Assembly (NCBI GenBank): GCA_029882215.1
Contig: JAOULC010000004.1
Coordinates: 61,701 to 125,700 of the forward strand
Source of the DNA: Gammaproteobacteria bacterium
GTDB lineage: Bacteria > Pseudomonadota > Gammaproteobacteria > SZUA-229
Direction of reading: 5' to 3'
DNA: 64,000 bases
In this document: positions 1-56,629 of the stretch, one piece after another
How positions within the stretch are numbered: the stretch's first letter is position 1
Layout of the letters: every line of letters starts with the position of its first letter
The notes under the pieces: generated by a model
What the model was told of the DNA's origin: nothing
Seen by the model: only the letters and a program-made list of their open reading frames with translations
Databases searched by the model: none
Position numbers and translations under genes: made by a program

Positions 1-1231
1 TATAGCGTTTACGCGCATCATCTGTACCAGCCGTGAGTTTGTTCATCAGCACCAGTAATGCGATATCAACATGATCACCATGCTCCTGCCATTTGTTGTC
101 AATTAATTCGAGACGCGCTTCATTGGCAAGGACACCGCCCGCCAGTAATAACATTAAACTTTCCGGGTCATATACGCCGTTGTCATCGCGCGTGATATTA
201 CCATGCATATTCAGGCCTTCACCACTGACCGAATAGGCGCTGCCATCAGCCAGCATAATACGTCGAATAGTCAGTTCATTAAACGTCAGTGTGCCGGTTT
301 TATCTGAGGCGATAAAAGTACAAGAACCTAATGACTCAACGGCAACAAGCTTGCGAATAATGACGCCGACAGCTGCCATTCTTTTCATGCCGATAGCTAG
401 AGCGATGGTGATAGCCACCGGCAAACCTTCAGGAATCGCAGAAACAGCCAGCGCAACACCTAGCAGAAAGACGGTTGAAAGATCATCACCACGGGCTGCG
501 GTAACGATAAATATTAATGTAATTAGAATGAGCATGGCCCAGCTAATACGTGTGGTGAAACCCTGAATGCGCAGAACCAAGGGAGGCCTGGTATCTGCAT
601 CACTGCTAACATCCTGTGCAATCTTGCCTATTTCAGTCTTGATTCCTGTTGCAATCACTTCACCATGTGCACGGCCTCGCAGCACAATAGTGCCTGCGTA
701 AGCAAGATCAAGTCTGTCACCGGCAGGCATATCATCATGCCCTGTAAATTGTGCATCTTTGTCGGTTGCAAGAGACTCGCCCGTCAGCATAGACTCATCC
801 ACTTCCAGCTCCATCGTCCTTAACAGTTTGATGTCGGCAGGAATTTTGTCGCCTGAAACCAGCAGTGCAATATCACCGGGAACAATGTCTGCAGCATTGA
901 TAATGCACTGCTCTCCATCACGGATAACCGTGGCCTGATGCGGGACCATTTTTTCCAGTCCGGATGCTGATTTTTGTGCAGCGTATTCCTGAAAAGTTCC
1001 GATAGCAGCATTTAGAAACAGCACGCAGAGTATAAAAATGCCGTTGAGATTTTGCCCAAGCAGTAATGAGAGCACAACTGCGGCTAACAGTACGTAAATA
1101 AACGGGCTTTTAAACTGACGTAAAAATATTAAAGATAAGTCTGCCCGCTCAGGCTCTGGCAGACAGTTTGGGCCAAATTTAAACAGGCGCTGTTTTGCCT
1201 GTGCATGACTTAATCCGGATGGTGTTATCAT
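1..1231 (-). CDS. P-type cation-transporting ATPase (P2-type, Ca2+/Mg2+-ATPase-like), N-terminal ~410 aa; 3' end outside window
   Basis: Minus-strand frame from ATG at 1231 is open to window edge; translation contains TGES actuator motif and DKTGTLT aspartyl-phosphate motif plus N-terminal TM helices. Confidence 0.85.
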   Translation of the reverse strand, partial: MITPSGLSHAQAKQRLFKFGPNCLPEPERADLSLIFLRQFKSPFIYVLLAAVVLSLLLGQNLNGIFILCVLFLNAAIGTFQEYAAQKSASGLEKMVPHQATVIRDGEQCIINAADIVPGDIALLVSGDKIPADIKLLRTMELEVDESMLTGESLATDKDAQFTGHDDMPAGDRLDLAYAGTIVLRGRAHGEVIATGIKTEIGKIAQDVSSDADTRPPLVLRIQGFTTRISWAMLILITLIFIVTAARGDDLSTVFLLGVALAVSAIPEGLPVAITIALAIGMKRMAAVGVIIRKLVAVESLGSCTFIASDKTGTLTFNELTIRRIMLADGSAYSVSGEGLNMHGNITRDDNGVYDPESLMLLLAGGVLANEARLELIDNKWQEHGDHVDIALLVLMNKLTAGTDDARKRY

Positions 1232-1316: not shown

Positions 1317-2864
1317 CTAGCCCTGCATCTGTGTTGCCAGCTGCATAATTTCCTGCCGGTGTGTTACTGGCTTAAGCGCCAATAACTGTTTCATTAAGTC
1401 TCTGGCTTTATTTGCAGCTTCAAGGTGATACCAAAGCAGTTCAATTTCAAGAAGCCTGCAATGAACAGCATCAAATTCACCGTTATAACGACTATTCGCA
1501 TTATTAATCAGGCAATATGCCAGCTCATACTTTTGTAGCTTTATGGCTGACTGAGTTAATAATATCAACTCACCCGCCTGAGCAAGTACAAAATCTTTAG
1601 AAACCAGCTGACACTTTTCAGCATAACTCACAGCTGCAGAAAAACGCTGCGTATTTAATAATAAATAAATAACCAGACGCCCCACACATAAAAATGCCCG
1701 GCTGGGTTGCCACTGACTCATACGGTCAAAAAGCTCTTCATAAATTTCCACACTTCCCTGTTTATACTCAAAATCATCAAGCAATAATACAACAGCATCA
1801 CTGTCTCTTTCGGTTTGCACATAAGTATAGAGCTTACTTAAATGTGCCTCGCATTCACGCTCCGCGTTTTTGCTCCTTATCCTGTCATCAAACTGTTGTT
1901 TACCGCCAATATAACTGGCATCGAAGGTGTTTATATTACGACTATAGCGCCTGTAATTTATTTCTTCTTTTAATTCATCTTTGATATCCTGTCGTCTTTC
2001 CTTAAACCATAGCTTACCCAGAAAGTACCCGGTTATGCCGCCACTGACATGGGCAATAAGATTTACTCCTCCATTATTGCCGTCATTCAAAAGATCCCAG
2101 CTGTCCCAGCCTATATACCATAGCGCCAGAATCCAGGCCGGTATATAAACAGTTTTCAGAAAAGTAAAAAACCAGACAAACACCCTGATTTTAGCCTCTG
2201 GCATAAGATAAGCAGCGAGCCCGATCATGCCGCTAACAACTCCCGACAGACCCAGCGTAGGAACAGGATGGGTTCCGATGCTGATCAGTGAATAAGTAAT
2301 ATGTGTGCTAAAGGCAATAAGCAGTAAAGCTTTAATAAATTTCCAGCTATTGCTGATTAAGATTTCAAGCGCCGGAGTAAAGGCAAAGAAAAACAGCAGA
2401 TTAAAAAAAATATGCCCTAAGTCACCATGCGCCAGTGACGAAGTTATCATTTTTAACGGGTTCCATGAATCAGGATAATACATGATCGACTTATTAAGGC
2501 CACTGATCAGATCTTCTGAAAAAATCAGATAATGCTTTTCAATAAACTTAACAGTCATTCCCGTTGATCCAGAGTATAAGAGATTATCGCTAATAAACTG
2601 CTGCAGGTCCCAGTCATCCCGCAGGTAAACATGGATATCAGTGAGGATTTCTACGCATTCACGGCGACCATTTAACGGGCTTTCATTTAATCCCGGACTG
2701 TTTGCTTCAGAAAGAGACTGACAATACAGAGTTGCTGCCTGTAAAATCGTGCTGTTATTTTGATATTGCAGAAAAAAAATAACACTGCAAATTATCATTA
2801 CCGCGTAGGTAACGACCGGCAGTTTATTTAGCTTGAGCTCAGTACTATAAGGAATAAAAAACAT
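1317..2864 (-). CDS. Rhomboid-family intramembrane serine protease with extra N-terminal and long C-terminal helical (TPR-like) domain
   Basis: 515-aa ORF; rhomboid catalytic signatures GLSGVVSGMIG (GxSG) and AHVSGGITGYFLG (His helix); multiple TM helices; GGAG RBS 6 nt upstream of ATG. Confidence 0.7.
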   Translation of the reverse strand: MFFIPYSTELKLNKLPVVTYAVMIICSVIFFLQYQNNSTILQAATLYCQSLSEANSPGLNESPLNGRRECVEILTDIHVYLRDDWDLQQFISDNLLYSGSTGMTVKFIEKHYLIFSEDLISGLNKSIMYYPDSWNPLKMITSSLAHGDLGHIFFNLLFFFAFTPALEILISNSWKFIKALLLIAFSTHITYSLISIGTHPVPTLGLSGVVSGMIGLAAYLMPEAKIRVFVWFFTFLKTVYIPAWILALWYIGWDSWDLLNDGNNGGVNLIAHVSGGITGYFLGKLWFKERRQDIKDELKEEINYRRYSRNINTFDASYIGGKQQFDDRIRSKNAERECEAHLSKLYTYVQTERDSDAVVLLLDDFEYKQGSVEIYEELFDRMSQWQPSRAFLCVGRLVIYLLLNTQRFSAAVSYAEKCQLVSKDFVLAQAGELILLTQSAIKLQKYELAYCLINNANSRYNGEFDAVHCRLLEIELLWYHLEAANKARDLMKQLLALKPVTHRQEIMQLATQMQG

Positions 2865-3289: not shown

Positions 3290-4126
3290 CTACCAGCCGA
3301 ACATCATATTATCGACTAATAAATTTTGTCCATCATACTCATTTTTAGAGGCAACTATGAATTTCTGTGTTTGTTTACTGAAACGATTCAGAAGGTTATG
3401 TGCCGCCTGACTGCCCTTTTCACTCAGTAAAAATTGTGTTATTTCAGCTTGTTTTTCTGCACTAATTCGCGCACTAATGGTAATCCCCTGATTAGTCAGC
3501 ACCTGACTCTTAGCAATGACTTTTAAGCTGCTTCGTGCCTGTTGTTCCATATTGTTTTTGAAAAAGCTCTCTCTGAAAACAGCGGCATCACATTTTCCTG
3601 CTTTAAATGCAGCATATACTTTATTAAAGCCGTCTTTAATGGCGATGAACTTTGGTTGCTGCACCTGATTAGGAAACATAGAATAAACAGACAATGTACC
3701 AAGGTGTGGTGATGGTAATACGCAGATTTTACGTGATATTAAATCTTCTTTTGTATTAATTATCGAGTTGTCATTTTTTGTCACCAGAACAAAAGCTAAA
3801 TCACCGGGCAATCTGACCAATGGATTTGCATCAGTCTTATTAAAACGCCATGCAACAAAGTGCGGACCATCAAATACGAAATCATATTTACCTGATTTCA
3901 AAAACTTCTTGTACATTGACCAGTTACCAGGATGCACATACTTTACCTCTGCACCCATAATCCTGCTCAGTTCTGCAGTGAGTGATCCATAAGTTTTTAT
4001 GCCGTCTTCAGCACTCTCTCTGGGTGGTGCCGTGAAGTAGTATTCTGCTGCTGCTGTATTAATGCTTAAAACAGTCAGCACTGCGCTGCAAAATAACGAT
4101 TTCAATAGTTTGTTTGATTTATTCAT
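3290..4126 (-). CDS. Periplasmic PhnD-like (phosphonate-binding-type, PBP2) substrate-binding protein, paralog A; no transporter partner genes
   Basis: 278 aa, N-terminal signal peptide ending AAAEYYF; sequence pattern matches phosphonate-bd/PhnD-like family (Y..L...L....G..V..V......F.K.G.YDFVF.GPHFV.WR, GKCDAAVF); ~60% identical to ORF 5150..5989. Confidence 0.7.
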   Translation of the reverse strand: MNKSNKLLKSLFCSAVLTVLSINTAAAEYYFTAPPRESAEDGIKTYGSLTAELSRIMGAEVKYVHPGNWSMYKKFLKSGKYDFVFDGPHFVAWRFNKTDANPLVRLPGDLAFVLVTKNDNSIINTKEDLISRKICVLPSPHLGTLSVYSMFPNQVQQPKFIAIKDGFNKVYAAFKAGKCDAAVFRESFFKNNMEQQARSSLKVIAKSQVLTNQGITISARISAEKQAEITQFLLSEKGSQAAHNLLNRFSKQTQKFIVASKNEYDGQNLLVDNMMFGW

Positions 4127-5149: not shown

Positions 5150-5989
5150 TTACCAGCCGAAAATCATATTATCGACCAACAGGTTCTGACCATCATATTC
5201 ATTTTTACTGGTGTAAATAAACTTTTTATTTTTCTTACTAAAGCGTTTTAACAAATTATCAGCTGCTTCACTGCCTTCTTTGCTCACCAGAAACTCTGCA
5301 ATTTTTTTCTGTTTATCTGCACTAACACGCTTACTGATTGTTATGCCCTGATTAGTCATGGTCGGGCTCGTAGCGAGCACTTTTAAAGCTTCACGTGCAT
5401 TGTCGTCCATGTTGTGCTTATAAAAACTCTCTCTGAAAACAGCCGCATCGCACTTACCTGCTTTAAAGCTCGCATATACCTTTTTAAAGCCGCCACCGGC
5501 ACTGGCAACAAATTTTGGCTGCTGCACCTGATTGGGAAACATGGAATAAATAGCCAGCGTTCCCAGATGAGGTGATGGTATCACACAGATTTTACGGGAA
5601 ATTAAATCTTCTTTTGTTTTAATCATATTGTTGTCTTTGGCTGCAACCAGAACAAAAGAAATATCACCCGGAAGGCGGACCAAAGGATCAACATCGGTAT
5701 TATTAAATCGCCAGGATACAAAGTGCGGCCCATCAAAAACAAAGTCGTAGTCTCCCGATTTCACAAACTTTTTATAAGTTGGCCAGTTTTTTGGATGCAC
5801 ATACTTCACTTCTGAGCCCATTATTTGGCTTAGTTTAGCAACCAATGGGCCATAGGTTTCAAGCCCTTTTGCAGCACTTTCTCGTGGCGGTGCTGTGAAA
5901 AGGTATTCTGCTGTCGCAGAGCTGATGAATAACACTGAAATAAGTGCACTAGAAGATAGCAAATTAATGAATTTGTTAATTTTTACCAT
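5150..5989 (-). CDS. Periplasmic PhnD-like substrate-binding protein, paralog B
   Basis: 279 aa with signal peptide (ATAEYLF); colinear with and ~60% identical to 3290..4126; same family signatures. Confidence 0.7.
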   Translation of the reverse strand: MVKINKFINLLSSSALISVLFISSATAEYLFTAPPRESAAKGLETYGPLVAKLSQIMGSEVKYVHPKNWPTYKKFVKSGDYDFVFDGPHFVSWRFNNTDVDPLVRLPGDISFVLVAAKDNNMIKTKEDLISRKICVIPSPHLGTLAIYSMFPNQVQQPKFVASAGGGFKKVYASFKAGKCDAAVFRESFYKHNMDDNAREALKVLATSPTMTNQGITISKRVSADKQKKIAEFLVSKEGSEAADNLLKRFSKKNKKFIYTSKNEYDGQNLLVDNMIFGW

Positions 5990-7304: not shown

Positions 7305-10178
7305 TTATATACCCAGTTTCTGACTGATGCTTGCTAATAATTCTTTTGCATTGATTGGTTTTGTAACATAATCATCAAAACCGGCCGCCAGCCCCCTGTC
7401 AATATCTTTCTGCATAGCATTTGCACTCAATGCAACGACAACAATATCGCGGGTTTCCTTATGCTGTTTTAAATGTCTAAGCACATCAAACCCGTTCATT
7501 CCGGGCAGATTAATATCAAGCAGTATCAGGTCTGGCCGGTGCTCGATTGCAAGCTCTAATCCTAAGAACGGCTCATGCGCACTCCACATATGAATAGAGG
7601 GCTGGTGTGACAATAATAATTGCACTAATCTCAAATTAGTCGGGTTATCTTCAATATAAAGGACGTTATATTTTTTTCCCGGATCAGAATCATTATCCAT
7701 CTTTGTATCTCCATTTGATAGCGGCAACATCGGATAATATTGTGCCGGTTTCGACTTAGCATGATCTTCTGATGAATCACCGGCAGGTAATATAAACCAG
7801 AAAGTACTGCCGATACCCGGCTGACTATCCACACCAATTTTACCTTGCATTAATTCAATGAGGTTTTTAGTAATAACTAGACCTATTCCGGTGCCTTCTA
7901 TTTCAGACTGTTCAGCACCTAAGCGATTAAAAGGTTTAAATAACTGTACCTGCTGTTCATTTGTTAAACCAGCACCGCTATCAATAATACTGACGCGAGT
8001 ATAATCACAATCAGTCGTATCATAAGTAATGACAATAGAACCGTTCTCACTATTATATTTGACCGCATTACTCAGGAGATTTAAAAGCACCTGCTTCACT
8101 CTGGTACGATCACCCTTGACGATACTTCGCTGACATAATAATTCACTAACCGCTATGGCCGTGTCATTACGTTTAATAAAAATTGTCAGACCATGTTTTT
8201 CAGCTAAAGGTGTAATTAATTTAAGTGCTTCTTCTATCAGCTCTTCAAGTGAGATAGGTTCGATTGATAACTCTATCCGGCCTGATTCTATTTTAGTAAG
8301 GTCAAGTATTTCATTAATCAGTGCTAAAAGATGCTCGCCGCCCTTTTGTATTTCGTTAACGTACTCAGTCTGTACAGAACTTAAATCATCGCCATTTAAT
8401 TCCAGTAACTGACTAAAACCTATAATCGCATTAAGCGGTGTACGCAGCTCATGACTCATGCTGGACAGAAACTGGGATTTGGCATGATTAGCATTTTCTG
8501 CCTCATCACGTGCATCCAGCAGTGCCTTTTTGGCTAACTCCCTGGAAGTAATGTCGCGCAAAACACCAACGTAACCTGACCGTACATCCCCCTGCATTGG
8601 TGTTACATTCAGTTCCATCGGAAAAGAACTGCCGTCTTTTCGGCATCCCTTAAGATCTCTTGTTCGATGGATAATCCGGGGTTCATTCAATGCTGAATTT
8701 TTAGTGTACTCTTCATGCTCATCTCTCTCATCCTGATGAAGCAAGATTGATACATTTTTGCCGATAACTTCTTCAGATGTATAATTAAATATCTTTTCAG
8801 CTGCCGGGTTAAAGCCATCGATAATGCCGTGATCATCGATGGTAACAATGGCATCTGCAATGGCTTTGAAAACGGTTCTCTGTTGTGCTTCACTTTGCTC
8901 AAGAGAGCGGGTTCTTTCTGCAACCTGTGCTTCTAAATTATCGTTTAGATCACGCAGGTTTTTTTGCGAACTGTCAACCTGCTGAATCATACTTTCAAAT
9001 GAGCGCGCCAGTACTCCCACTTCATCATTCAAATACAGCGGCAAACTTTCCAGTGAGCTTTTATTATGCGAGTAATCATCGACTGCTGACGTCATTTGTT
9101 TTATAGGACGGGTAACACGCACAGATACAAGTATTGCAATACCAGTGGCTATAAAAGCCAGAATAAGACCCCATATTGCCATATCGTTAAGTACAGCTGA
9201 CTGACTGGCAACAATATCACCAAAAGCCTGACTCATGGTCACCGAGATATATCGCTCGGGTCGTAAAGGATCGAACAGAATTTTTGAAAATACTATAGCG
9301 TAGTCACTTTTGCTTTCATCAGGTTTGAGTACATGGTGCATTTTTTTATTTTCTGGCAGAAACAGCTTAGCAAGACGGGGAATATCTTCCTGTATACGAT
9401 AACGTTTACCCAGATCAAAACCATAGGTTTTACTTTTATCAGGATGCAGTAAATAACCACCCTGATCGTTTGTTATATAAATATTTCGTCCGGTTTTCTC
9501 AATCTCATTATGAATCTTTTGTAACTCTTCACCAATTTCAGTAGTAATCAGAACAATTCCGGCTACAGCGCCCGTTCTGTTATCATATACTGGTGTCGAA
9601 GTCCGCATAACCTGACGGTGAGGCTGGCTAACTTTTCCATATTCGCGGTTAAGGTTTATTTCCGATAAATATACAGCACCACTTTCTAATTTCATTGCTT
9701 CAATAAAATAACGTCTTTTTTTCTTACTTTGTAATCGTTCATCACTCATTGCCGCTATTTTTTTAGTTTCAAAATTGCGCTCAACGACAATTAACTCCTG
9801 GCCATTTTTATCGATAAACCGAAGTGTAAGGTAGGATTTTTTACTATTTATTACCGTTGTAAAAATTGACTCCAGACGTAATTTCCACTGCGTAAATGTT
9901 GACTGACCTATCGCATCATAATTATTCGAACTTTTAGCCCGGATAATACCCTGAATCGGCGGTGTTTCAGATAAAATCAATACCTCTGCATACAGATCCT
10001 CAATTTTACTTTGTAGCCGGTTCCCGGTATTTTGAATCTCGGCTTCAATCGCGCTGAAGGTATTTTCTACTAATATATTAGAAATTTTAGTATAGAAAAG
10101 ACCGCCGATAACACTACTGGTCAGCAATACAACCAGCACTGTACTTAAGCTAAACTTATGAACAATCGATAACTTCAT
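7305..10178 (-). CDS. Hybrid sensor histidine kinase: TM - large periplasmic Cache-like domain - TM - HAMP - PAS - HisKA - HATPase_c - C-terminal REC
   Basis: 957 aa; H-box [15 protein letters not shown]-boxes GTGIGL, receiver with LILLDINLPGMNG; two TM segments flanking ~300-aa periplasmic region. Confidence 0.9.
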   Translation of the reverse strand: MKLSIVHKFSLSTVLVVLLTSSVIGGLFYTKISNILVENTFSAIEAEIQNTGNRLQSKIEDLYAEVLILSETPPIQGIIRAKSSNNYDAIGQSTFTQWKLRLESIFTTVINSKKSYLTLRFIDKNGQELIVVERNFETKKIAAMSDERLQSKKKRRYFIEAMKLESGAVYLSEINLNREYGKVSQPHRQVMRTSTPVYDNRTGAVAGIVLITTEIGEELQKIHNEIEKTGRNIYITNDQGGYLLHPDKSKTYGFDLGKRYRIQEDIPRLAKLFLPENKKMHHVLKPDESKSDYAIVFSKILFDPLRPERYISVTMSQAFGDIVASQSAVLNDMAIWGLILAFIATGIAILVSVRVTRPIKQMTSAVDDYSHNKSSLESLPLYLNDEVGVLARSFESMIQQVDSSQKNLRDLNDNLEAQVAERTRSLEQSEAQQRTVFKAIADAIVTIDDHGIIDGFNPAAEKIFNYTSEEVIGKNVSILLHQDERDEHEEYTKNSALNEPRIIHRTRDLKGCRKDGSSFPMELNVTPMQGDVRSGYVGVLRDITSRELAKKALLDARDEAENANHAKSQFLSSMSHELRTPLNAIIGFSQLLELNGDDLSSVQTEYVNEIQKGGEHLLALINEILDLTKIESGRIELSIEPISLEELIEEALKLITPLAEKHGLTIFIKRNDTAIAVSELLCQRSIVKGDRTRVKQVLLNLLSNAVKYNSENGSIVITYDTTDCDYTRVSIIDSGAGLTNEQQVQLFKPFNRLGAEQSEIEGTGIGLVITKNLIELMQGKIGVDSQPGIGSTFWFILPAGDSSEDHAKSKPAQYYPMLPLSNGDTKMDNDSDPGKKYNVLYIEDNPTNLRLVQLLLSHQPSIHMWSAHEPFLGLELAIEHRPDLILLDINLPGMNGFDVLRHLKQHKETRDIVVVALSANAMQKDIDRGLAAGFDDYVTKPINAKELLASISQKLGI

Positions 10179-10223: not shown

Positions 10224-11123
10224 TTATTCTGCATAAGCCTCCACTTTCAGTTTTTTCATTAGTGTATTGACAACACTATAGTTGTGCGCCGGCACCCAGC
10301 CAATGTATTTACCCGCTTTTGCAGCCAGGGTCTCAGGTTCCAGCGACAGGAGTATTTGCTGTATCTGCTGTTGCAGTTTTTGCGGAACGTTTCGCATTGC
10401 GGCAAAGCTCCACTCTGGGTACAGCTCTGTACTAAGAAAAAAAGGAAAGCTCTCTATATCTTTATTATTAAGAATACGAAAATATCTGAGATCAATTTCA
10501 CCGGTTGACTCCATATTTTCAAGCGTATCAGTTCGCACTACACCTACATCGGCTATACTATCCCTGACTGCCCGGACAACTTCCTGATGGGTTCTTGACT
10601 TACTAAACAATAATTTACGGGCGTCTTTGTACGGATCAAAATCATTTTTAAGCATCTCATACCACGCCATGCGCCAGCCACCAAATGCTGACTCTGATAC
10701 CGCCATCAGAACTTTGTCTTTAAAGTCTGATATTTTAATAATATTTTCATTACGCACATGGGTAAAGATCACCGATCCAAACTGATCCTGAGCTGTATTC
10801 GCGCGTTTATTGTTTAACGTAACCAATGCAGTTGCTCCGTATAATTGGTCTATTTCAACAAAAGATGACGGGTTAGTTAATACAAAATCAAACTCATGCT
10901 GACCTGCCAGTTTTGTTAATTCCTCCAGTTTTAATACAGGCATAAGGAAGAATCTATGCTCTGGGAATTGTGCATTCAGCACATTGACTGTTTGCTGCCA
11001 CTGTTGCTTGGCCTTTTCAATGCCATGATGTGCCCTGACAGCAATCCGGTATTCTTTAGCCAGCAAGCCCTGAGACAGAAATATGCACATCATTATCATA
11101 AGGGCTTTAATTGCTGGTCTCAT
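10224..11123 (-). CDS. Periplasmic PhnD-like substrate-binding protein, predicted co-sensor, co-transcribed upstream of hybrid kinase 7305..10178
   Basis: 299 aa with signal peptide; PhnD/phosphonate-bd family pattern (YRIAV..., SESAFGGW, DVGVVRTD); 45-nt gap to downstream kinase on same strand. Confidence 0.75.
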   Translation of the reverse strand: MRPAIKALMIMMCIFLSQGLLAKEYRIAVRAHHGIEKAKQQWQQTVNVLNAQFPEHRFFLMPVLKLEELTKLAGQHEFDFVLTNPSSFVEIDQLYGATALVTLNNKRANTAQDQFGSVIFTHVRNENIIKISDFKDKVLMAVSESAFGGWRMAWYEMLKNDFDPYKDARKLLFSKSRTHQEVVRAVRDSIADVGVVRTDTLENMESTGEIDLRYFRILNNKDIESFPFFLSTELYPEWSFAAMRNVPQKLQQQIQQILLSLEPETLAAKAGKYIGWVPAHNYSVVNTLMKKLKVEAYAE

Positions 11124-17084: not shown

Positions 17085-19919
17085 TTAAAAAGCGCCGCCG
17101 ACTTTAAGGTAATAATATTCATCACCGGTTTCATCCAGTCCCTGTGCATAACCCAGACGGATTTGCGGTGTAAAATTATAAAAAAAATTAAGATCGATCA
17201 GCCACTCCACACCGACACTTTGCAACGGTTTTTTATCCTGACCATCAAACCAGCTAGCACCTGTTTCGGCAAACAGCCTGCCAGAGTGCTTCATAATACC
17301 TACAGGGGGTGCCATAATGCCTTTTTCAACATGCCGTAATGGAAAGCGCCACTCGATGGAAGCCAGCTGCAGATGATTACCCATTTGAGTATTATCAGCA
17401 TAGCCGCGCAATGCAAAGTGACGTTTATTAAATGTCGTGCGGGAATATTGGGGGTTAAGTAGTGTTACTGAATCCCAGTCACTCTCTAAGCCACCAATTG
17501 TGTAGGCTCGCATGTCAGGATCTGCACTGGCTGTTACGTATCTTAAGGCCAAGCTGTGGTGTGAACCAAGCCTGAAATATTCGCGCCAGTCGAGAGTGGT
17601 CGCTGTGCCTGAATAATCACTGCTGAATACATCACTACTCTCTGTTACCAGCAACACATCTCTGCCAGTTTCAGGGCTGTTACCTTTCATAAATGACTGT
17701 TTACTGTCATAAAAGATGCTGAACCCCAACAAATCATCACTTTGATCCAGAAAGCCGGTGACACCGCTGGCACGATAAACATCTGCTTCATGATTATCGA
17801 TCAGGCCCAAACTTAATCGCCAGCGACTTTTTAAGCTAGTGAACGGTAAAGAAAAACGTAATTGTGCCTGACGGTTGGTTCTGATGATATCTGTCAGCCC
17901 CGTTGAATGATTTGAGAAAAGGCTGTTTTCTCTGGCGACGACAAAGCCCAGCCAGTTATCATACTGATACAGTAAGGAGCCGGTCAGGTCAGACTGTTCA
18001 TAGCCGTAAGCCAGATTGAGCTGATAATAATGGTTGTCTAATGAATCATTTGAAGATGTTATAAAACCAATCTCACTGGCTTTATCCTGCAGCACCAGCC
18101 ATGGAAACCAGTATTTAGGGATAAGGTCCGGCCAGGGAGAATACTCCTTAAACGTGTATGTTAATGTGTCATCTGGCAAAGGCTCATTAAAACGAATGAG
18201 CCGCTTCACGGCTGGCTTTAACTGCGGTGGATGGCTTGCTTGCAGGTCCGTTGAATGAATCGTATAGCCGTCTCTTGCAAATAACTGATAATACAGGCGC
18301 TCATTATGCAGCACAGGAGAAAACGCACCGCTAACAACATTAGTCAGCGGCGTAAAAACAGCAGAATTAAATGGCTTAACATATATATTGTAAACACCGC
18401 TTATATCACTGCTAAATAAAACAGCAGACTGATCAGGCGTATATCGCGCCTGCATAAAATTGGCGTTATCTGCAACCAGCTGGCTCCAGTTTGATGATGT
18501 TAAGTCAAACTCATGGATTCCCCATTTTGTATTCAGCTCTTTTTTGCTAACCAGTAGCCTGCCTCTTTCATCAGACCAGTCGAGGCTACTGACAACATCA
18601 CCATATTGTCCGCTCCATAATGTTTTTATCAGTTGTGCATTTTGATCCAGTAAATCAATCTGCGGAACGGAAGCAACTGTCCTCGCTGCAAGCAAATGAC
18701 CGGTCTTTTTTACAACGGTAATGTTTTTATAGCGAGAGCACTTAGTCAGCTGCTCAAGCTGTTGTGTTACCAGACTGTAACGGTATAGATCATAGTAAAT
18801 ACTATATTCGTCGCAGAATTCCGGCTGTGAAATATAGATCAGATTATCTTCGCCAACACTAAAGTAACTGTCTCTGTTTAATTCAATTAATGCTGTCTTC
18901 TTTGTATTTTTCAGCAGCATTAATTGTGAAACAGTTTCATAGTTATCTTCGATATAAAGCATTGCTCCATCATCCATGAACTGGATAACCGATAATTGAT
19001 GCGGCTGATTAACAATAACAACATCCGGCTTGGATTTTACCGCTTCAAGTGCTGATATCTGTCCGCTAAAACGATGCGTAAGATAGAGTTTAAACTCGTC
19101 CCATAGCTGCGATATATCTTTGCCAAAAACACGTTTGCTGTTTGAGTTTATTGAAAATGGCACGATGTTATCACTGTAAAGCTGAATCATTTTATTAATG
19201 GATTCAATACCGTAGCGGTCTTTTAAAAACTGATAGAAAAAAACACCATACAGATAATGTCGCCCCAGTGGCTGACTATCAACCGGCAAGTTCACCGTCT
19301 CCACCGCCAGCAAGCCTTGCCTTATCTCTTCCCGCATCAGCATTTCAAAACCGCTGCTTTGTCCTCTGCCAATACCCTCATGGGTTTCATAATGCGTCGC
19401 CAGACCCTCAATAAGCCATTTTGGTTGCAGGATATTTGGAAACAGTAGAAGATAACGGCCAAACACTTTTCGCAGAGAAGACACCTTGCCGACAGATTTA
19501 TCCAGATGAAAAATATGTGTCAGCTCATGCTCAATCAATAATGTTAACCAGTCATCATAATCTTCAAGCTGGGCGGGTTTATCCGCCGGTGAAAGCTGCA
19601 ACACCATTCTGTTGAAGGGGTAAGGTGTAGCACTGCCATTTGCCCAATCCTGATCATCTGAAACAACAATGCTTATTTTATCTTTGGGTGTCCATGCCAG
19701 TTTTTGTTGCAGTTCAAGATAGAATTTTTCAGCAATAAATGCAGAGCGCTTTGCCTGAGCTCGGTATGCCTCAAGATAGTGAACATTAAAGTGTTCGCTA
19801 ACTAAGGTTTCCCAGTGAGCTGAAGGGTTCGCGGCTAATGCAGATGAGGTATTAAAAACAAAAAAGATTAATAGAAAACGCGTCATCCATAAGTACATAG
19901 TAATATTATATTTCCGCAA
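17085..19919 (-). CDS. Outer-membrane protein with N-terminal HExxH zinc-peptidase-like domain, central TolB-like beta-propeller, and C-terminal Omp85-type beta-barrel
   Basis: 944 aa; signal peptide (…SSALA); HELTH motif ~aa 130; PD40-like repeats (DWSDERGRLLV, YTPDQSAVLFSSDISGVYNIYV); C-terminal aromatic-terminal barrel signature …YYLKVGGAF. Confidence 0.6.
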   Translation of the reverse strand: MRKYNITMYLWMTRFLLIFFVFNTSSALAANPSAHWETLVSEHFNVHYLEAYRAQAKRSAFIAEKFYLELQQKLAWTPKDKISIVVSDDQDWANGSATPYPFNRMVLQLSPADKPAQLEDYDDWLTLLIEHELTHIFHLDKSVGKVSSLRKVFGRYLLLFPNILQPKWLIEGLATHYETHEGIGRGQSSGFEMLMREEIRQGLLAVETVNLPVDSQPLGRHYLYGVFFYQFLKDRYGIESINKMIQLYSDNIVPFSINSNSKRVFGKDISQLWDEFKLYLTHRFSGQISALEAVKSKPDVVIVNQPHQLSVIQFMDDGAMLYIEDNYETVSQLMLLKNTKKTALIELNRDSYFSVGEDNLIYISQPEFCDEYSIYYDLYRYSLVTQQLEQLTKCSRYKNITVVKKTGHLLAARTVASVPQIDLLDQNAQLIKTLWSGQYGDVVSSLDWSDERGRLLVSKKELNTKWGIHEFDLTSSNWSQLVADNANFMQARYTPDQSAVLFSSDISGVYNIYVKPFNSAVFTPLTNVVSGAFSPVLHNERLYYQLFARDGYTIHSTDLQASHPPQLKPAVKRLIRFNEPLPDDTLTYTFKEYSPWPDLIPKYWFPWLVLQDKASEIGFITSSNDSLDNHYYQLNLAYGYEQSDLTGSLLYQYDNWLGFVVARENSLFSNHSTGLTDIIRTNRQAQLRFSLPFTSLKSRWRLSLGLIDNHEADVYRASGVTGFLDQSDDLLGFSIFYDSKQSFMKGNSPETGRDVLLVTESSDVFSSDYSGTATTLDWREYFRLGSHHSLALRYVTASADPDMRAYTIGGLESDWDSVTLLNPQYSRTTFNKRHFALRGYADNTQMGNHLQLASIEWRFPLRHVEKGIMAPPVGIMKHSGRLFAETGASWFDGQDKKPLQSVGVEWLIDLNFFYNFTPQIRLGYAQGLDETGDEYYYLKVGGAF

Positions 19920-20087: not shown

Positions 20088-21002
20088 ATGCTAAAGGATA
20101 TAGATTCATTGATAAACATTATCAATACACTTAAAAGCTACACATGGGATAAGCTGATACACAGTCTCACCCGGGATCGGGGTGAAGTAAATATTGGTTT
20201 ATCAAATTTTGATCGTCTGCGTTATGAAATCAGGCCCGGTGATGTATTGCTGGTTGAGGGCCGCACGCGTATTAGTAGCATCATTAAAACCGTCACCCAG
20301 TGTTGCTGGACCCATTCTGCTATTTATGTTGGCCGGCTGCATGATATAGAAAACCCTGCCATACGGGCACATATCAAACGCTTTTATAATGGCGACCCTG
20401 AAGAACAATTAATTATTGAGGCGATGATTGGTGAAGGCACCTTAGTTGATAACTTACGTAAATATCGGGGTGAAAACTTACGTATATGCCGGCCCAAAGG
20501 TATCACACATCAGGATGCTCAAAAGGTCATTAATTACGCCATCAAACGTCTGGGCAGCGATTATGATGTGCGCCAGATACTCGACTTATTACGCTTTTTA
20601 TTTCCCTACTCAATACTCCCCAGACGCTGGCGCTCCAGTTTATTTCAGCACCATGCAGGAGCCACCACCAAAACGGTTTGTTCGACAATGATGGCCGAAG
20701 CATTTGCCTCCGTTCACTTCCCTATTCTGCCGGTTTTGCAATATGATGAAGACCATAACCTTAAATTATATCGCCGCAATACCAAACTGATCACGCCGAG
20801 TGACTTTGACTATTCTCCCTACTTTGATGTTATTAAATACCCGATTTTCGACTTTGATGAACTGTCTGTCTACAAACAACTGCCTTGGAACAGTGAGGGC
20901 GTCATGTACAATGATGCTGATAAAATACAGGTGATTGATGGCTCAGGCAACGCTAATATTTTAAAAGCAATTCGTTCAGATATAACAGGCACAACTAATT
21001 GA
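20088..21002 (+). CDS. YiiX/YaeF-like permuted papain-fold (C92) enzyme
   Basis: 304 aa; His-before-Cys arrangement (CCWTHSAIYVG ... KTVCSTMMAEAF) typical of permuted NlpC/P60-like amidases. Confidence 0.5.
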   Translation: MLKDIDSLINIINTLKSYTWDKLIHSLTRDRGEVNIGLSNFDRLRYEIRPGDVLLVEGRTRISSIIKTVTQCCWTHSAIYVGRLHDIENPAIRAHIKRFYNGDPEEQLIIEAMIGEGTLVDNLRKYRGENLRICRPKGITHQDAQKVINYAIKRLGSDYDVRQILDLLRFLFPYSILPRRWRSSLFQHHAGATTKTVCSTMMAEAFASVHFPILPVLQYDEDHNLKLYRRNTKLITPSDFDYSPYFDVIKYPIFDFDELSVYKQLPWNSEGVMYNDADKIQVIDGSGNANILKAIRSDITGTTN

Positions 21003-39977: not shown

Positions 39978-40940
39978 ATGAGCAGCAAGCATTGTGATTC
40001 TTCGGTGAGACTCAACCTAAGCATGACTTTTTCGATTTTATTTTTTCTTATGGTTCTTGTGTCTATAACGGCATGTGATCAATCCTCGCAGTCGCAGTCC
40101 TCACAAACTCCTCAGTATGGTGACAGTTCGACTCTGGATAGCAAACCTGTCTATCGTTTCGCCATTCACCCACTGCATAATCCTCGTAAGTTAACAGAGG
40201 TCTATCAACCGCTCATTAACCAGCTTAACGCGAAAATTCCCAGCGTGCACTTCCAGGTTGAAGCATCTCGTGATTACCAGGCTTATGAAATGAAATTTCG
40301 CGCCCGTGAAGCGGAATTTTTATTACCTAACCCGTGGCAAACGCTTGAGGCCATAAAAGTAGGCTATTCCGTCATTGCCATGGCCGGTAACGCCGAAGAT
40401 TTTAAAGGCATTTTCGTTGTACGCAATGATAGTGGTATCAAAGTACCGACTGACCTAAAAGGTAAAAAGGTGAGTTGTCCTTCTCCCACCGCACTGGCAG
40501 CCTGTATTATGCCACATCAATATTTACACAATCATGGCGTGAACGTGCAAGCCGATATCGAAAAGTTGTATGTTGGTTCTCAGGAGTCATCCATAATGAA
40601 TACTGCTTTGGGCAGTGTTGCCGCTGGTGCAACCTGGCCACCTCCATGGCGTGCCTTTCAAAAAGACCACCCGGAAGATGCCGCCAAGCTTAAGGTGATA
40701 TGGGAAACACCGCATCTGCTCAATAACTCGGTAATGGTGCGTAAAGATGTACCTGCAAATATACGCGATCAGGTTAAACAGATACTCCACGATTTACATA
40801 AAACCCCTGCAGGTCAGGAGCTTCTAAACGGAATGGAAACAGCACGTTTTCATCCGGCGGATGACGGAACCTATGACAAGGTTCGTCAGTTCGTTGCACG
40901 TTTTGAAAAAGAAGTTCGACCAGTAGAGGTTAAAAAATAA
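39978..40940 (+). CDS. PhnD-like periplasmic lipoprotein (substrate-binding, predicted ligand-sensing partner of downstream kinase)
   Basis: 320 aa; lipobox ITAC; strong PhnD-family pattern (YRFAIHP, SCPSPTALAACIMP, LKVIWETP); stop overlaps kinase start (ATAATGG). Confidence 0.8.
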   Translation: MSSKHCDSSVRLNLSMTFSILFFLMVLVSITACDQSSQSQSSQTPQYGDSSTLDSKPVYRFAIHPLHNPRKLTEVYQPLINQLNAKIPSVHFQVEASRDYQAYEMKFRAREAEFLLPNPWQTLEAIKVGYSVIAMAGNAEDFKGIFVVRNDSGIKVPTDLKGKKVSCPSPTALAACIMPHQYLHNHGVNVQADIEKLYVGSQESSIMNTALGSVAAGATWPPPWRAFQKDHPEDAAKLKVIWETPHLLNNSVMVRKDVPANIRDQVKQILHDLHKTPAGQELLNGMETARFHPADDGTYDKVRQFVARFEKEVRPVEVKK

Positions 40941-43900
40941 TGGGAAAAGCGTTAACGTATTTTTTTTCTGGAAACCTGCGTCGTCGATTGTTGTTTAGTG
41001 TAGCCGCAATACACGCTGTGATGATGAGTGTTTTTATCTGGGATCTGACAGAGCGCCAGCAGGATATGATCCTCAGCCAGCAGACCCGGTTAGCGACGGC
41101 CCTGGCGCAAAGTGTTGCAACTTCTACCGCTATTTGGTTGCAGGCACGCGACGTTGCCGGACTACAGGAAATTATAGAATCCCAAAAACGATATCCAGAA
41201 TTGAGTTTTGGTATGGTCGTTACGGCTGATGGCGAAATTCTCGCGCATACGGATCAATCACTTCGAGGTCGTTACTTAACTGACCTGCCTGCAAGGCCAG
41301 AGCAACATCTCTTTCGTCAGGATGAGAGCCTGGTCGATGTCGCTACGCCTGCACTGGTTGCAGGACAACATGTCGGATGGGTGCGCATTGGTGTCGGCAA
41401 AGGCGTCACCCATAGCGAATTAGCCGCGCTCACGCGTGACGGCGTGTTCTATACCTTGTTTGCGATACTGGTTGGTTCGTTACTGGCCGCTTTACTGGCC
41501 CGACAAATGACACGTCGACTCAATATTATTCAGTCGACAGCAGACGCTGTGCAGGCCGGGGAGTCAGGGAGGCGCGCGAATGTAGCCGGTGATGACGAGG
41601 CAGCTATTCTTGCTCGCCAATTTAATCGCATGCTGGATACGCTGGAAGAACGCGAGCAAGAGCTGGAACAACATCGAAGCCATCTTGAGGAAACAGTCGC
41701 TGAACGTACCACAGACCTGGCAAGTAAAAATAAACTGTTCGAATCCATCAGTAGGATGCAGGCACAATTTATTCGTGAGCAGGACCCGCAGGAATTGTTC
41801 AGTTGCATCGTACAGGAGTTTGCCGCACTGACTGATAGTGAAATGGGCTTTGTCGGTGATATTCATCGCCACGAGGATGGATATAACTACCTGAAAGATT
41901 ATTCCTTCTTTAACGTACCTCAGGATGAAGCGTCGCAGCATTTTTATGAAAAACACAAAGCCACCGGCTTTATGTTCCGGCAGGATCAGCACCCCAACTT
42001 GTTTAACCAGGTCATTACGGATCGCACAGTGATTATTGCCAATGCGCCGGCGCGCGGCTCACACTCTACCGGTCTTCCTGATGGTCATCCGCCGTTACAA
42101 AATTTCCTTGGTATCCCCGTCTTTTATGGCGAACGCCTTGTGGGTGAGATCGGCCTGGCCAATCGAACAGGTGGCTACAACCGGGCTGTGGTTGATATGC
42201 TCAAACCGGTAATTGATGCCTGTGGTCGTATCATCGTCGCTCGTTGGGATCAATCGGCACGTGAGGAAGCTGAAGCGGCAGCCATCGAAGCACAGAAAAC
42301 GGCCGAGTCGGCAAATGAAGCGAAGAGCATGTTCCTGGCGAATATGAGCCATGAATTACGTACCCCACTTAATGCCATTCTTGGCATGTTGTATTTAGCG
42401 CTACGCAATGATTTGCCGGATGCGCTACGTAACCAGTTAAGTAAGGCGCGGTCATCTGCACACTCCTTATTAAGTATCATCAATGACATTCTTGATCTCT
42501 CCAAGATTGAAGCTGGCAAGCTTGAGATCGAAAAAATCGAGTTTGGTCTTGATGGTGTGTTGGAGCGCGTGACGGATATTGTCGCGGGGCAGGCGGCGGA
42601 CAAAAATATCGAGTTCCTGATTCGCTATGATAACGAGATACCGTGCACCCTGGTTGGTGACCCACTTCGACTGGGGCAGGTGTTAATCAATCTTTGTGGT
42701 AATGCGGTAAAGTTCACCGAAGTAGGCCAGGTAGAATTATCCTTTCATGCAGATGAAGTTACCGATACTACGCTCACCGCACGCATTTGTGTCATGGATA
42801 GTGGTCTTGGAATGTCCACTGATTTACAAGCACAGCTATTTGAAAAATTTGTTCAGGCAGATCAAAGTAGTACTCGTCGCTTCGGTGGCACCGGACTCGG
42901 ACTGGCAATTTCCAGGATGCTGGTGGAGATGATGGGCGGTCGTATCTGGGTTGAACATTCTGAACCCGGATCGGGAACCACGTTCTGTCTGTCCCTGCCG
43001 CTGGGTATTGCCTCTCAAGCACGGCGGAGTCATCGTGAAGATGTAGTAAAACGAGTCGGACACATGCTCAAGGGTAAGCGTGTACTGGTGGTGGACGATA
43101 ATGAAGTGTCGCTCGAAATATTAGCGGAAATGATGCGTGATTTTCAGTTTGAAGTTGATGTTGAGCCTAGCGGCGCAGCAGCACTGGCTAGAGTAGAAAT
43201 CGCTGGAGATGGTTATTATGATGTGGTGTTGACCGACTGGTCCATGCCGGGTATGAATGGCGATGAGGTCGTTCGCAAACTGCGCCGAAATGCAACGATG
43301 ACCTCGCTTCCCAAATTCATTATCGTTACCGCTTACGGGCGCGAAGACGTGCTCGAGGATGCTGAACGAGCTGGTGCGGACGGTTTTCTGGTTAAGCCCG
43401 TTTCACCTTCGGCACTGCTCGATACGACACTTGAGGTGTTGGGTCGTGAACGATTATGGGACACCACGTCAGAACCTGTTAGTTTACGAAAAACCAGTAA
43501 AGGATATAACTTTTCAGGGATGCGTTTACTGCTAGTAGAAGATAATGAAATCAACCGCGAGTTTGCAGGCATATTGTTACGCAGCGAGGATATTGAAGTC
43601 GATGAGGCAATCAATGGCCTTGAAGCCATCAGCCGTGTACAGGAAAAGACATATGATGGTGTACTGATGGACGTGCAGATGCCGGTAATGGATGGTTTAG
43701 AAGCGACACGCCAGATTCGTGCACTGGCTAACAACCCCGGACAAGAATACTTTGCCAGTTTACCTATTATCGCCATGACAGCACTCGCCATGGAGAAAGA
43801 TATCGAGAGAACCCGTGATGCAGGAATGAATGATCATGTCACTAAGCCTGTTGAGCCAGAGCAGTTAATGGCGACTCTTGCCAAATGGGTTAAACACAAA

Positions 43901-44545
43901 GAACAGAAAAGAAGTATTTCACAGACTTTTGAGCCACCAGAGGATATGAAAGCGCTAATTAATCTCGATGTAAAAGGTGGTATTCATCGCATTGGCGGTA
44001 ATGCTAATGCCTATCGGAAACAATTGAAACGCTTCAGCAAAAACTATGCTGATTGCACCACGGAATTGCAACGTTTTATTGATAAAGAAGGCACGCAGCA
44101 GGCCGAGGGTTACTGCCATGCACTTAAAGGTGTTACCGGTAATATTGGGGCAAAAAAGCTTCATGAAAAAGTAACAGAGCTTGATGATTTACTCAAACAG
44201 AATCAGATTCCAGAGAAGACAGCCTTAAATGAAATGGAGGTTTTACTACAAGCTGTACTCAGTGATATTGAAAGTTTATTAGAAACCTCAGATACCTCAA
44301 TGTCAGTCGACTGTGAGCCTCTGAAGGCGATAGAATTACATAACCTTCTGCAGAAATTACTAAATGCTCTGGAAACCGATCTGGGAGCTGTCGAAACATT
44401 AGTTATTAAGCTTCAGCACGGCCTGACTGACAGCGACCAAAAGGCCGCAATAGAAGCAATAGCGCGTCAGATTGACTGCTTTGACACAGATACCGCTATT
44501 GATTTAATTAACCAATTTCAGTCTGAATTAAACATTACAAATTAA
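40940..44545 (+). CDS. Hybrid sensor histidine kinase: TM - small periplasmic domain - TM - HAMP - GAF - HisKA - HATPase_c - REC - REC - Hpt
   Basis: 1201 aa; [16 protein letters not shown]-box; [18 protein letters not shown]; two receiver domains ([13 protein letters not shown]; [12 protein letters not shown]); C-terminal Hpt ([12 protein letters not shown]). Confidence 0.9.
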
Positions 44546-50079: not shown

Positions 50080-50146
50080 TGTAATTTACATCGTAATTAT
50101 ATTGGTGCTTGCAGACAGATTAAATAAACTGACTCACCACCAACTA

Positions 50147-56625: not shown

Positions 56626-56629
56626 ATGA

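Follow-up and report, generated by a model that had tools for sequence, protein, structure and literature searches.

The gene on the minus strand of the 64,000-nucleotide stretch of gammaproteobacterial DNA analysed here (the window) encodes a polypeptide in which a zinc-peptidase-like domain, a TolB-like propeller and an Omp85-type barrel follow one another (Table 1). By its sequence, the gene falls into the WD40-like Omp85 group (WD40-Omp85) of the Omp85/TpsB superfamily, a subfamily catalogued in 2014. We favour, with moderate confidence in the explanation as a whole, an outer-membrane-anchored zinc peptidase which faces the periplasm and is associated with its propeller. The structural annotation of the three domains, taken together, is very likely correct. 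The preliminary description had noted that this architecture was not that of a standard BamA or TamA. This was right, as no POTRA domain is present, but the novelty it implied failed because the subfamily had been listed in 2014.

BLASTP aligned residues 5-937 of the window protein with residues 1-933 of UniRef100_D5CSQ4 (P0149 in our homologue set; WP_013029888.1, 933 aa) from Sideroxydans lithotrophicus ES-1, at 29% identity (E 2e-120). D5CSQ4 was placed under 'WD40-like' Omp85 in Table S3 of Heinz & Lithgow (2014; PMC4104836), with Phyre matches to TamA, TolB and the M1 factor F3. For this subfamily the same table records aminopeptidase- or collagenase-like N-termini, and its PDB templates are 2w8b for TolB, 4k3b and 4c00 for the barrels, and 1z5h, 3qnf, 4kxd, 4fgm, 4ar1 and 4ar9 for the peptidases (PMC4104836). 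The PDB families matched by the three domains of the window protein are those of Table S3. The three-part plan is the same, the lengths are near (937 versus 933 aa), the templates are common and the partial Pfam patterns agree (PF01103, PF07676, PF00930, PF10647), and we saw no difference of kind between the window protein and the subfamily. Subfamilies without POTRA are kept in the Omp85 superfamily by their barrel domain (PMC4104836). The WD40-like subfamily was restated in 2024 as having 'divergent WD40 and peptidase domains' (PMC11358297), and papers of that year still term it uncharacterised; in the literature searched we found no functional or experimental study of a member. The 'Metallo' Omp85 subfamily (PMC4104836) was rejected as an identity, since it carries the PF00149 metallophosphoesterase fold and not a peptidase.

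The open reading frame extends from 17085 to 19919 on the minus strand and counts 944 codons from a TTG at 19919, with two further in-frame starts, ATG 19898 (937 aa) and ATG 19886 (933 aa). A single secreted polypeptide of 944 aa had been described earlier, with the strand unstated; the frame exists, but either ATG is a more plausible start than the TTG. The NCBI annotation of the metagenome-assembled genome (MAG) gives a protein of 933 aa (P0001, start 19886), 100% identical to the window protein. Residues are numbered throughout in the 937-aa form from ATG 19898. No clear Shine-Dalgarno sequence was visible, and a promoter/terminator scan gave no signal above shuffled expectation. At the N-terminus, MYLWMTRFLLIFFVFNTSSALA, which precedes ANP, looks like a Sec signal peptide, with predicted cleavage after ALA. 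Inspection revealed no lipobox Cys in it, and residues 1-20 had low pLDDT in an AF2 model that reached a pLDDT of 91.1 and a pTM of 0.90 at full length.

Table 1. Features of the gene and its predicted product; positions are those of the window, residues those of the 937-aa form.
Feature	Residues	Positions	Strand	Basis or remarks
CDS, peptidase-propeller-Omp85 protein		17085..19898	minus	937 aa from ATG 19898; stop 17085-17087
Putative Sec-type signal peptide, MYLWMTRFLLIFFVFNTSSALA	1-22	19833..19898	minus	read from sequence
Gluzincin (clan MA) zinc-metallopeptidase-like domain	29-286	19041..19814	minus	
DDQDWANG	81-88	19635..19658	minus	D81, D84 and N87 invariant in alignment A1
HELTHIFHLD, zinc-binding/catalytic motif		19500..19529	minus	H124, E125, H128, H131 and D133 invariant
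WLIEGLA, 'glutamate helix'		19398..19418	minus	alignments; E164 invariant, as is E171 further along the helix
Six-bladed TolB/PD40-like beta-propeller	293-550	18249..19022	minus	AF2 strand pattern, TolB/PD40 matches
Linker with conserved YSPW...P.WW motif	551-597	18108..18248	minus	alignment and model
16-strand Omp85-type outer-membrane beta-barrel	598-937	17088..18107	minus	AF2 model, Foldseek
ALRGY in loop L6	829-833	17400..17414	minus	counterpart of Omp85 (V/I)RG(Y/F)
FAETG in the strand after L6	876-880	17259..17273	minus	counterpart of Omp85 (F/G)xDxG
YYLKVGGAF, C-terminal strand with beta-signal type end		17088..17114	minus	sequence, homologue sets

The N-terminal domain is the best-conserved region of the whole protein in the homologue alignment. 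Its first subdomain is a beta-sheet and its second is helical, and when modelled separately the domain had a pLDDT of 88.5. About 0.03 HExxH motifs would be expected by chance in a protein of such sequence. HELTH occupies residues 124-128, and HExxH was present in all 120 homologues of the first set and all 121 full-length members of the second (241/241 in total). The distance from the second His (H128) to the WxxEGxA motif was 35 residues in 113 of the 117 second-set sequences having that motif, and E164 is predicted to be the third zinc ligand from the W-x-x-E-G-x-A motif of M1 and Peptidase_MA_2 and from the fold match. HExxH lies on the active-site helix and the downstream Glu on the next core helix of a thermolysin-like fold, as in clan MA(E) gluzincins, and the model indicates that the head has a genuine gluzincin peptidase fold with conserved HExxH and Glu. 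The HExxH peptidase-like head of the preliminary description was thus supported by the fold and the invariant residues, with E164 in WLIEGLA as an invariant candidate for the third ligand. The domain did not turn out to be a non-catalytic POTRA or other fold carrying HExxH by chance.

Sequence searches gave a fainter picture of this domain. Among 22 N-terminal fragments, weak matches to clan-MA Pfam families were obtained for BSP (11/22) and Peptidase_MA_2 (7/22, best E 1.9e-6). Pfam M1 (PF01433) matched one of 50 full-length members (0.0046) and one of the 22 fragments (0.045), and M9 one of the 22, the fragment matches being far below threshold. An HMM profile of the domain and a phmmer search with the full protein against PDB sequences found only TolB and no solved peptidase, the matches of the domain to a xyloglucanase and LIMP-2 being at chance level, so that the peptidase kinship is invisible to a sequence-only search of solved structures. 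The Pfam scan of the window protein alone likewise gave nothing above threshold (PF01103, Omp85, had no match), and what identifies the domain as a peptidase is therefore its fold, its motifs and the weak Pfam matches. Clan MA gluzincins (ERAP1, APN and tricorn factor F3 of M1, lugdulysin of M30, collagenase of M9) share 9-16% identity with the domain, and its gluzincin fold lies outside M1, M9 and M30. In M1 enzymes the spacing from His to Glu is 18 (HExxH-x18-E) whereas it is 35 in the window protein, which also differs from them in the absence of the N-terminal saddle and C-terminal helical domains, and the gluzincin HExxH is extended here to HExxHxxHxD. In M1 enzymes the GxMEN motif confers aminopeptidase action. 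DDQDWANG, about 36 residues upstream of HExxH, occupies what we take, from the motif spacing of M1 enzymes, to be the position of GxMEN. GxMEN (G-x-M-E-N) was found in none of the 241 homologues, which have DxxDxxNG in the corresponding stretch. Membership of family M1 was rejected on the lack of GxMEN, the wrong Glu spacing and the lack of flanking M1 domains.

Taken by itself, the window protein gave a weak propeller signal (NCBIfam TolB 1.5e-5; PDB TolB 0.0067). The family profile matched TolB at 4e-16, PD40 was found in 39 of 50 members and DPPIV_N matched the propeller region weakly in 23 of 50. TolB of the Tol-Pal system, which has a six-bladed PD40 propeller in common with the window protein, was the best match to this region in both sequence and fold. 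However, the N-terminal TolA-binding domain of TolB is absent; a peptidase fold precedes the propeller instead, and the propeller is covalently fused between peptidase and barrel. TolB as an identity was ruled out by this missing domain and by the score of the NCBIfam model TIGR02800, 24.1 bits against a cut-off of 343, with only the propeller blades 435-533 covered. The sole two cysteines of the protein, C362 (18813-18815) and C387 (18738-18740), sit in the propeller, are each 92% conserved and probably form a disulfide, to judge from their conservation; such a co-conserved pair fits an oxidising compartment. No POTRA domain was seen in the AF2 model. The 47-residue linker after the propeller has no beta-alpha-alpha-beta-beta unit and is not a POTRA, being too short and of the wrong secondary structure.

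For the C-terminal part, the DSSP string of the AF2 model contains 16 strands, and Foldseek matched the barrel to BamA 8xnb (4e-9), 4k3c, TamA 8us4 and FhaC 4ql0. The long loop L6 (residues 793-841) lies between strands 11 and 12, and within its ALRGY L830, R831 and G832 are invariant and Y833 is at least 90% conserved. The FAETG motif takes the form FxExG in the divergent gammaproteobacterial MAG clade of the window protein and FxDxG in the betaproteobacterial clade of Sideroxydans, a conservative D-to-E difference. The terminal residue was Phe in 114 and Tyr in 5 of the 121 members of the second set. The barrel fold of 16 strands, the RGY motif in L6 and the FxE/DxG motif are those by which the Omp85 superfamily is recognised. 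PF01103 reached 26.3 bits in homologue P0035 (cut-off 24) and was matched in 16 of 50 members at E<=1; by sequence, Omp85 membership at the level of PF01103 holds for the family and not for the window protein alone. The NCBIfam scan of the window protein alone also gave nothing above threshold. With BamA and TamA the window protein shares the 16-strand barrel, the L6 (V/I)RG(Y/F)-type and (F/G)xDxG-type motifs and an aromatic C-terminus. The difference is in the N-terminal part, which comprises five POTRA domains in BamA and three in TamA, whereas it is made of enzyme and propeller, with no POTRA, in the window protein. BamA as an identity was ruled out by this contrast of none against five and by the NCBIfam model NF058613, with 14 bits against a cut-off of 1050 and a match to the C-terminal 100 residues only. 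The remaining parts of the preliminary description have stood: a PD40/TolB-like middle is backed by the six-bladed model, the family profile and PD40 in homologues, and an Omp85-type barrel ending in YYLKVGGAF by PF01103 in homologues, the Foldseek matches to BamA, TamA and FhaC and the Omp85 motifs, the C-terminus being modelled as a beta-barrel.

A search at E<=1e-10 recovered the peptidase domain from about 2,600 clusters at 50% identity, almost all of whose sequences are about 930-1000 aa long. This near-constant length, together with the N-terminal domain being the best conserved, argues for selection on the whole fusion. Relatives were found in genomes of Gamma-, Beta- and Zetaproteobacteria, with Pleionea mediterranea DSM 25350 and Alcanivorax limicola among the culturable carriers, and the 2014 list of WD40-like Omp85 proteins adds other phyla (PMC4104836). 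In the window the neighbouring genes are uvrC and those for a LuxR-type response regulator, a CYTH protein, a class V aminotransferase and a C92 amidase, together with fadE, thiolase and fadB genes; these neighbours are conserved in the three closest genomes only. Clustering of the flanking ORFs of 80 loci placed ubiE-ubiJ-ubiB upstream in 16 and a UvrD-like helicase downstream in about 10, and revealed no conserved gene partner among them. This result spoke against a gene partner dedicated to the protein, whether TpsA-like substrate, Bam lipoprotein or TamB, and the idea was dropped.

In the model that we favour, the polypeptide would be exported by Sec and its C-terminal barrel seated in the outer membrane, where it would bear the propeller and the N-terminal gluzincin peptidase of ~260 residues. 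Zinc would be held by H124, H128 and E164, with E125 as the general base. Given the strict conservation of the site, the gluzincin fold, the probable propeller disulfide, the barrel motifs and the lack of POTRA, catalysis is what one should expect by default, and from the sequences we consider it likely that the peptidase is catalytically competent. Since GxMEN is lacking and the likeness to the M9 and M30 endopeptidases is equal, we rate the enzyme as no less likely to be an endopeptidase or oligopeptidase than an aminopeptidase. The propeller may limit or select the substrates entering the active site, as propellers control access to it in prolyl-oligopeptidase-type and tricorn peptidases; the prolyl oligopeptidase/DPP-IV family and tricorn protease are functional analogies only. 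The barrel would be chiefly a membrane anchor, although the conserved motifs of L6 and strand 13 could mean that it does more than that. It is rather probable that peptidase and propeller face the periplasm. A barrel with an even number of strands has its N-terminus on that side, and the N-terminal domains of studied Omp85 proteins are all periplasmic, that of PlpD included, whose enzyme domain was shown by experiment to be exclusively periplasmic (PMC11116518). Of the two placements that the preliminary description offered for a processing machine, surface-exposed or periplasm-facing, topology and the PlpD precedent favour the second. The substrates might then be peptides or unfolded polypeptides, cleaved on the periplasmic side of the outer membrane as part of envelope protein turnover or quality control, a role that we propose only tentatively. 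BepA, an M48 zinc protease with TPR that works with BAM, offers a functional analogy only, as a clan-MA protease at the site of outer-membrane assembly.

Three other explanations were weighed against this anchored periplasmic peptidase. By analogy with BAM and BepA, here combined in one polypeptide, outer-membrane proteins (OMPs) that have stalled or misfolded might be caught by their beta-signal at the seam of the barrel and passed to the tethered peptidase for degradation; we regard such a device as unlikely, since neither co-occurrence nor a neighbourhood link to bam or lpt genes appeared across the 80 loci. It is improbable, too, that the protein is an assembly factor, a 'BamA-BamB fusion' whose barrel works as insertase or translocase while the propeller and the peptidase-like domain serve for docking or as chaperone with little or no proteolysis. 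Heinz & Lithgow (2014; PMC4104836) proposed this in their main text, and the barrel does retain two motifs known from functional Omp85 proteins, the L6 RGY and the FxDxG-type one, with BamA as its best Foldseek match. However, the protein is without POTRA, a domain common to every characterised Omp85 insertase and translocase (PMC11116518), and its propeller is six-bladed and TolB-like, not of the eight-bladed BamB type. A catalytic set that includes the general-base Glu and is invariant in 241 sequences, within the best-conserved domain, is also hard to reconcile with a docking module.

The barrel might, lastly, export its own peptidase and propeller in a type V-like manner for digestion of extracellular proteins as nutrients or remodelling of the surface, which we likewise hold to be improbable. 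In its favour, some of the best structural matches, the M9 collagenases and the M30 enzymes, are endopeptidases that are secreted, and the subfamily list includes protein-degrading Bacteroidetes and myxobacteria. Translocation of this kind was raised for enzyme-bearing Omp85 proteins by analogy with PlpD (Heinz & Lithgow, PMC4104836), but the PlpD enzyme domain, once proposed to be displayed, was later found in the periplasm only (PMC11116518), and the window protein has neither a POTRA domain nor a TpsA-like partner. Display would also require the passage of about 520 residues, a disulfide-bearing propeller among them, through a barrel that conserves the pore-filling L6 motif, and many carriers are chemolithoautotrophs (Sideroxydans, Mariprofundus, Ghiorsea, sulfur oxidisers) with little need for extracellular proteolysis.

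To our knowledge, characterised Omp85 proteins all assemble or translocate proteins. Work on PlpD, a patatin-like Omp85 protein from Pseudomonas aeruginosa, showed in 2024 that an enzyme, too, can be borne by this scaffold in the periplasm (PMC11116518). PlpD likewise joins an Omp85 barrel to an N-terminal hydrolytic domain and, by analogy, is the best precedent for reuse of the scaffold to hold an enzyme, although it is a homodimeric patatin lipase with one POTRA and no propeller whereas the window protein has a zinc peptidase, a propeller and no POTRA. There is nothing unusual about the window gene within its family, which had already been catalogued, and its architecture is not new. The WD40-like Omp85 proteins are nonetheless a large subfamily, with the peptidase domain in thousands of clusters, and our analysis adds a residue-level picture of them: the HExxHxxHxD...WxxEGxA site, a gluzincin fold which is not that of M1, M9 or M30, a probable disulfide, the barrel motifs and the lack of POTRA. 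If the reading as a quality-control device for OMPs were true, the protein would be a single-polypeptide surveillance machine with BamA-like recognition and BepA-like degradation, and this would be the first proteolytic function in the Omp85 superfamily, in a family as widespread as its ~2,600 clusters indicate.

Structural modelling and family-wide comparison indicated that the protein combines three domains (see table). The open reading frame put forward in the preliminary description was confirmed as a single long frame (17085-19919; 944 codons counted from a TTG), with its strand now corrected to minus. An in-frame ATG at 19898 (937 aa, the form numbered here) or 19886 (933 aa) is a more plausible start than the TTG; NCBI annotates the 933-aa form as 'hypothetical protein' in a gammaproteobacterial MAG (P0001, 100% identical to our protein). 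The N-terminus (MYLWMTRFLLIFFVFNTSSALA/ANP) has the typical features of a Sec signal peptide and lacks a lipobox. There are only two cysteines, C362 (18813-18815, minus strand) and C387 (18738-18740, minus strand). Both belong to the propeller, and each is conserved at 92%, which suggests that they form a disulfide and is consistent with an extracytoplasmic protein.

When the protein was searched alone, Pfam returned nothing above threshold, and NCBIfam gave a weak TolB match (435-533, 1.5e-5) and a weak BamA match in the last 100 residues. Among 50 family members, PD40 was found in 39 and Omp85 (PF01103) in 16, the latter above the gathering score in homologue P0035; weak DPPIV_N matches fell on the propeller region in 23 of the 50, and TolB structures were matched by the family profile at 4e-16. 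The AlphaFold2 model, built from 106 sequences, reached a pLDDT of 91.1 and a pTM of 0.90. Searched whole against the PDB with Foldseek, it matched BamA (8xnb at 4e-9; also 5d0q, 9hiv and 4k3c), TamA (8us4), FhaC (4ql0) and TolB (7mx5, 1crz). Omp85 proteins such as BamA, TamA and FhaC carry an L6 (V/I)RG(Y/F) motif, an (F/G)xDxG motif and an aromatic terminus. Here, ALRGY lies in the long barrel loop (L830, R831 and G832 invariant), FAETG on the second strand after it (family members have either FxExG or FxDxG), and the C-terminal residue is Phe; these correspond to the three Omp85 features.

Coordinates of the protein's domains (residues) and of further genes (nucleotides)
Feature	Position	Strand	Remark
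Alpha/beta-plus-helical domain	29-286		AlphaFold2 model
Six-bladed propeller	293-550		AlphaFold2 model; 24 strands
Linker	between propeller and barrel		AlphaFold2 model; 47 residues, no POTRA-like unit
Barrel	598-937		AlphaFold2 model; 16 long strands
Long loop	793-841		AlphaFold2 model; between strands 11 and 12
C92 (YaeF/YiiX) amidase	20088-21002	+	permuted papain-like, 304 aa; divergent from the peptidase-propeller-Omp85 gene
PhnD-like 'Phosphonate-bd' periplasmic binding protein	3290-4126	-	
PhnD-like 'Phosphonate-bd' periplasmic binding protein	5150-5989	-	
PhnD-like 'Phosphonate-bd' periplasmic binding protein	10224-11123	-	
PhnD-like 'Phosphonate-bd' periplasmic binding protein	39978-40940	+	
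Large hybrid histidine kinase	7305-10178	-	
Large hybrid histidine kinase	40940-44545	+	
Further hybrid kinase	44554-47406	+	
Fused sucrose-phosphate synthase/sucrose-phosphate phosphatase	51902-54076	-	inside glycogen gene cluster, 48112-63674
Rhomboid-domain protein	1317-2864	-	515 aa; rhomboid protease domain at residues 137-288 only, no domain assigned to the rest
ubi genes, related locus L005	4305-5981		upstream of match at about 6001; also in loci L044 and L004

HExxH, expected by chance 0.03 times from the protein's own composition, occupied the same position in 120 of 120 homologues down to 33% identity and in all 121 full-length proteins of a second set (betaproteobacterial), 118 of which had the extended HExxHxxHxD. 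The N-terminal stretch of about 260 residues was the best conserved part of the protein, its invariant positions in two alignments (106 and 50 sequences) including H124, E125, H128, H131, D133, G147, R148, F153-P154-N155, W161, E164, G165, E171 and G177-R178-G179-Q180. A candidate for the third zinc ligand, which the earlier reading had left to be checked, is present: E164 in WLIEGLA, 35 residues past the second His. Of the 117 second-set sequences with a detected motif, 113 keep this spacing. Its context matches the signature of Pfam Peptidase_MA_2, and M1 enzymes carry the same context, WLNEGFA. Pfam matches of N-terminal fragments were confined to clan-MA peptidase families, with BSP in 11 of 22 (best 7.5e-6), Peptidase_MA_2 in 7 of 22 (1.9e-6), and DUF2268, M61, M48, M1 and M9 besides.

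The head matched ERAP1 (M1; score 15.4, 223 residues aligned), lugdulysin (M30; 14.8), puromycin-sensitive aminopeptidase (M1; 14.4), Grimontia collagenase (M9; 14.2), LTA4 hydrolase (M1; 13.7), tricorn factor F3 (M1; 13.4), an M61 peptidase (11.5), thermolysin (M4; 10.2) and BepA (M48; 7.6), and Foldseek concurred (ColH, IRAP, ColG, a Vibrio collagenase and lugdulysin). By these matches to clan-MA peptidases, the head is a catalytic domain of the gluzincin type rather than a POTRA or another fold with a fortuitous HExxH, and the C-terminal region is modelled as a barrel, as had been proposed. The head is not an M1 enzyme: GxMEN, the M1 exopeptidase motif about 36 residues upstream of HExxH, occurred in 0 of 241 homologues, the His-to-Glu spacing is 35 residues versus 18, and the flanking M1 domains are missing. 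A conserved DxxDxxNG stands at the M1 GxMEN spacing, about 36 residues upstream. Identity to any solved peptidase was 9-16%, and a sequence profile of the head matched no peptidase among solved structures; the head is best classed as a clan-MA family of its own.

The first protein search gave 387 homologues, nearly all of 920-1000 aa, and screening a single genome from each species gave at least 550 loci, with carriers including Sideroxydans, Gallionellaceae, Mariprofundus, Ghiorsea, Alcanivorax, Pleionea, Bermanella, Acidiferrobacterales, Thiotrichaceae and the Olavius Gamma-3 symbiont. The N-domain alone retrieved 4,712, 2,613 and 706 clusters (50% identity) at E<=1e-3, 1e-10 and 1e-30; 125 of 145 newly retrieved top matches were 850 aa or longer, so the fused form is the rule. 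Some 20 of these 145 representatives had only 250-580 aa (P0244, P0260, P0262, P0263, P0307 and similar); they are probably contig-edge fragments, or may be stand-alone peptidase(-propeller) forms.

The gene stands alone. A class V aminotransferase gene is convergent with it, fadE, thiolase and fadB genes follow the C92 amidase gene, and uvrC, a LuxR-type response regulator and a CYTH protein lie on the opposite flank; these neighbours, the C92 amidase included, are conserved no further than the three closest genomes. When the ORFs flanking 80 related loci were clustered, no dedicated partner was apparent. ubiE-ubiJ-ubiB lay directly upstream on the same strand in 16 of the 80 (median gap from ubiB 33 bp), an arrangement absent around the gene in the window, and a UvrD/Rep-like helicase lay downstream in about 10. 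Elsewhere in the window, two of the four PhnD-like genes are directly upstream of, and in the same orientation as, large hybrid histidine kinases, the second pair being followed by another hybrid kinase, which has three receiver domains; such pairs look like binding-protein-dependent sensor modules. The glycogen cluster also encodes an alpha-amylase-family enzyme, a glucan phosphorylase, a 4-alpha-glucanotransferase, a GH57 enzyme, glgC and glgB.

The architecture, taken as unusual in the preliminary description, was read correctly in its domains and lacks POTRA units, but it is already catalogued: WD40-like Omp85 (WD40-Omp85) is one of ten subfamilies of the Omp85/TpsB superfamily (Heinz and Lithgow, 2014; PMC4104836). 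Table S3 of that study has a 'best aminopeptidase hit' column for about 100 WD40-like UniProt entries, with Phyre confidences of about 99% for 1z5h (tricorn factor F3), 4kxd, 3qnf (ERAP1), 4fgm and 4ar1/4ar9 (collagenases), the same structural families as in our own, independent comparison. Among the listed entries is D5CSQ4, 'Surface antigen (D15)' of S. lithotrophicus ES-1 (Sideroxydans locus L079; P0149 = WP_013029888.1 = UniRef100_D5CSQ4); residues 5-937 of our protein align with its residues 1-933 (29% identity, E 2e-120), and this end-to-end alignment makes our protein a WD40-like Omp85 member. The 2014 paper's 'Metallo' subfamily is distinct from it, carrying PF00149 with a metallophosphoesterase fold.

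No residue of the complete catalytic set varies, the general-base Glu included, and the head is the most constrained part, from which we infer that the peptidase is active. An even-stranded barrel places the N-terminus in the periplasm, and to our knowledge the N-terminal domains of all studied Omp85 proteins are periplasmic. In PlpD, the sole precedent of an enzyme on an Omp85 barrel, the enzyme domain is experimentally periplasmic (PMC11116518). On these grounds, the soluble domains are probably periplasmic. The most likely role, proposed tentatively, is cleavage of peptides or unfolded polypeptides on the inner side of the outer membrane, where the propeller, as in other propeller-bearing peptidases, would probably restrict or select substrates. 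It is unlikely, though attractive by analogy, that the protein is a quality-control device capturing beta-signals. About as unlikely is an assembly factor without proteolysis, against which stand the invariant active site and the missing POTRA. A peptidase-propeller passenger displayed on the cell surface is hardly more probable, given the PlpD result, the missing POTRA, the conservation of the L6 plug motif and the way many of the carriers live.

WD40-like Omp85 proteins 'have not been well characterized' (PMC11116518); a 2024 summary mentions 'divergent WD40 and peptidase domains' (PMC11358297), nothing more on them is found in a BAM review of 2026, and our full-text literature search found no functional study of the subfamily. 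With its architecture already catalogued, our protein is therefore one more member of a known, uncharacterised subfamily, and it is the WD40-like Omp85 family as a whole that is a worthwhile experimental target.
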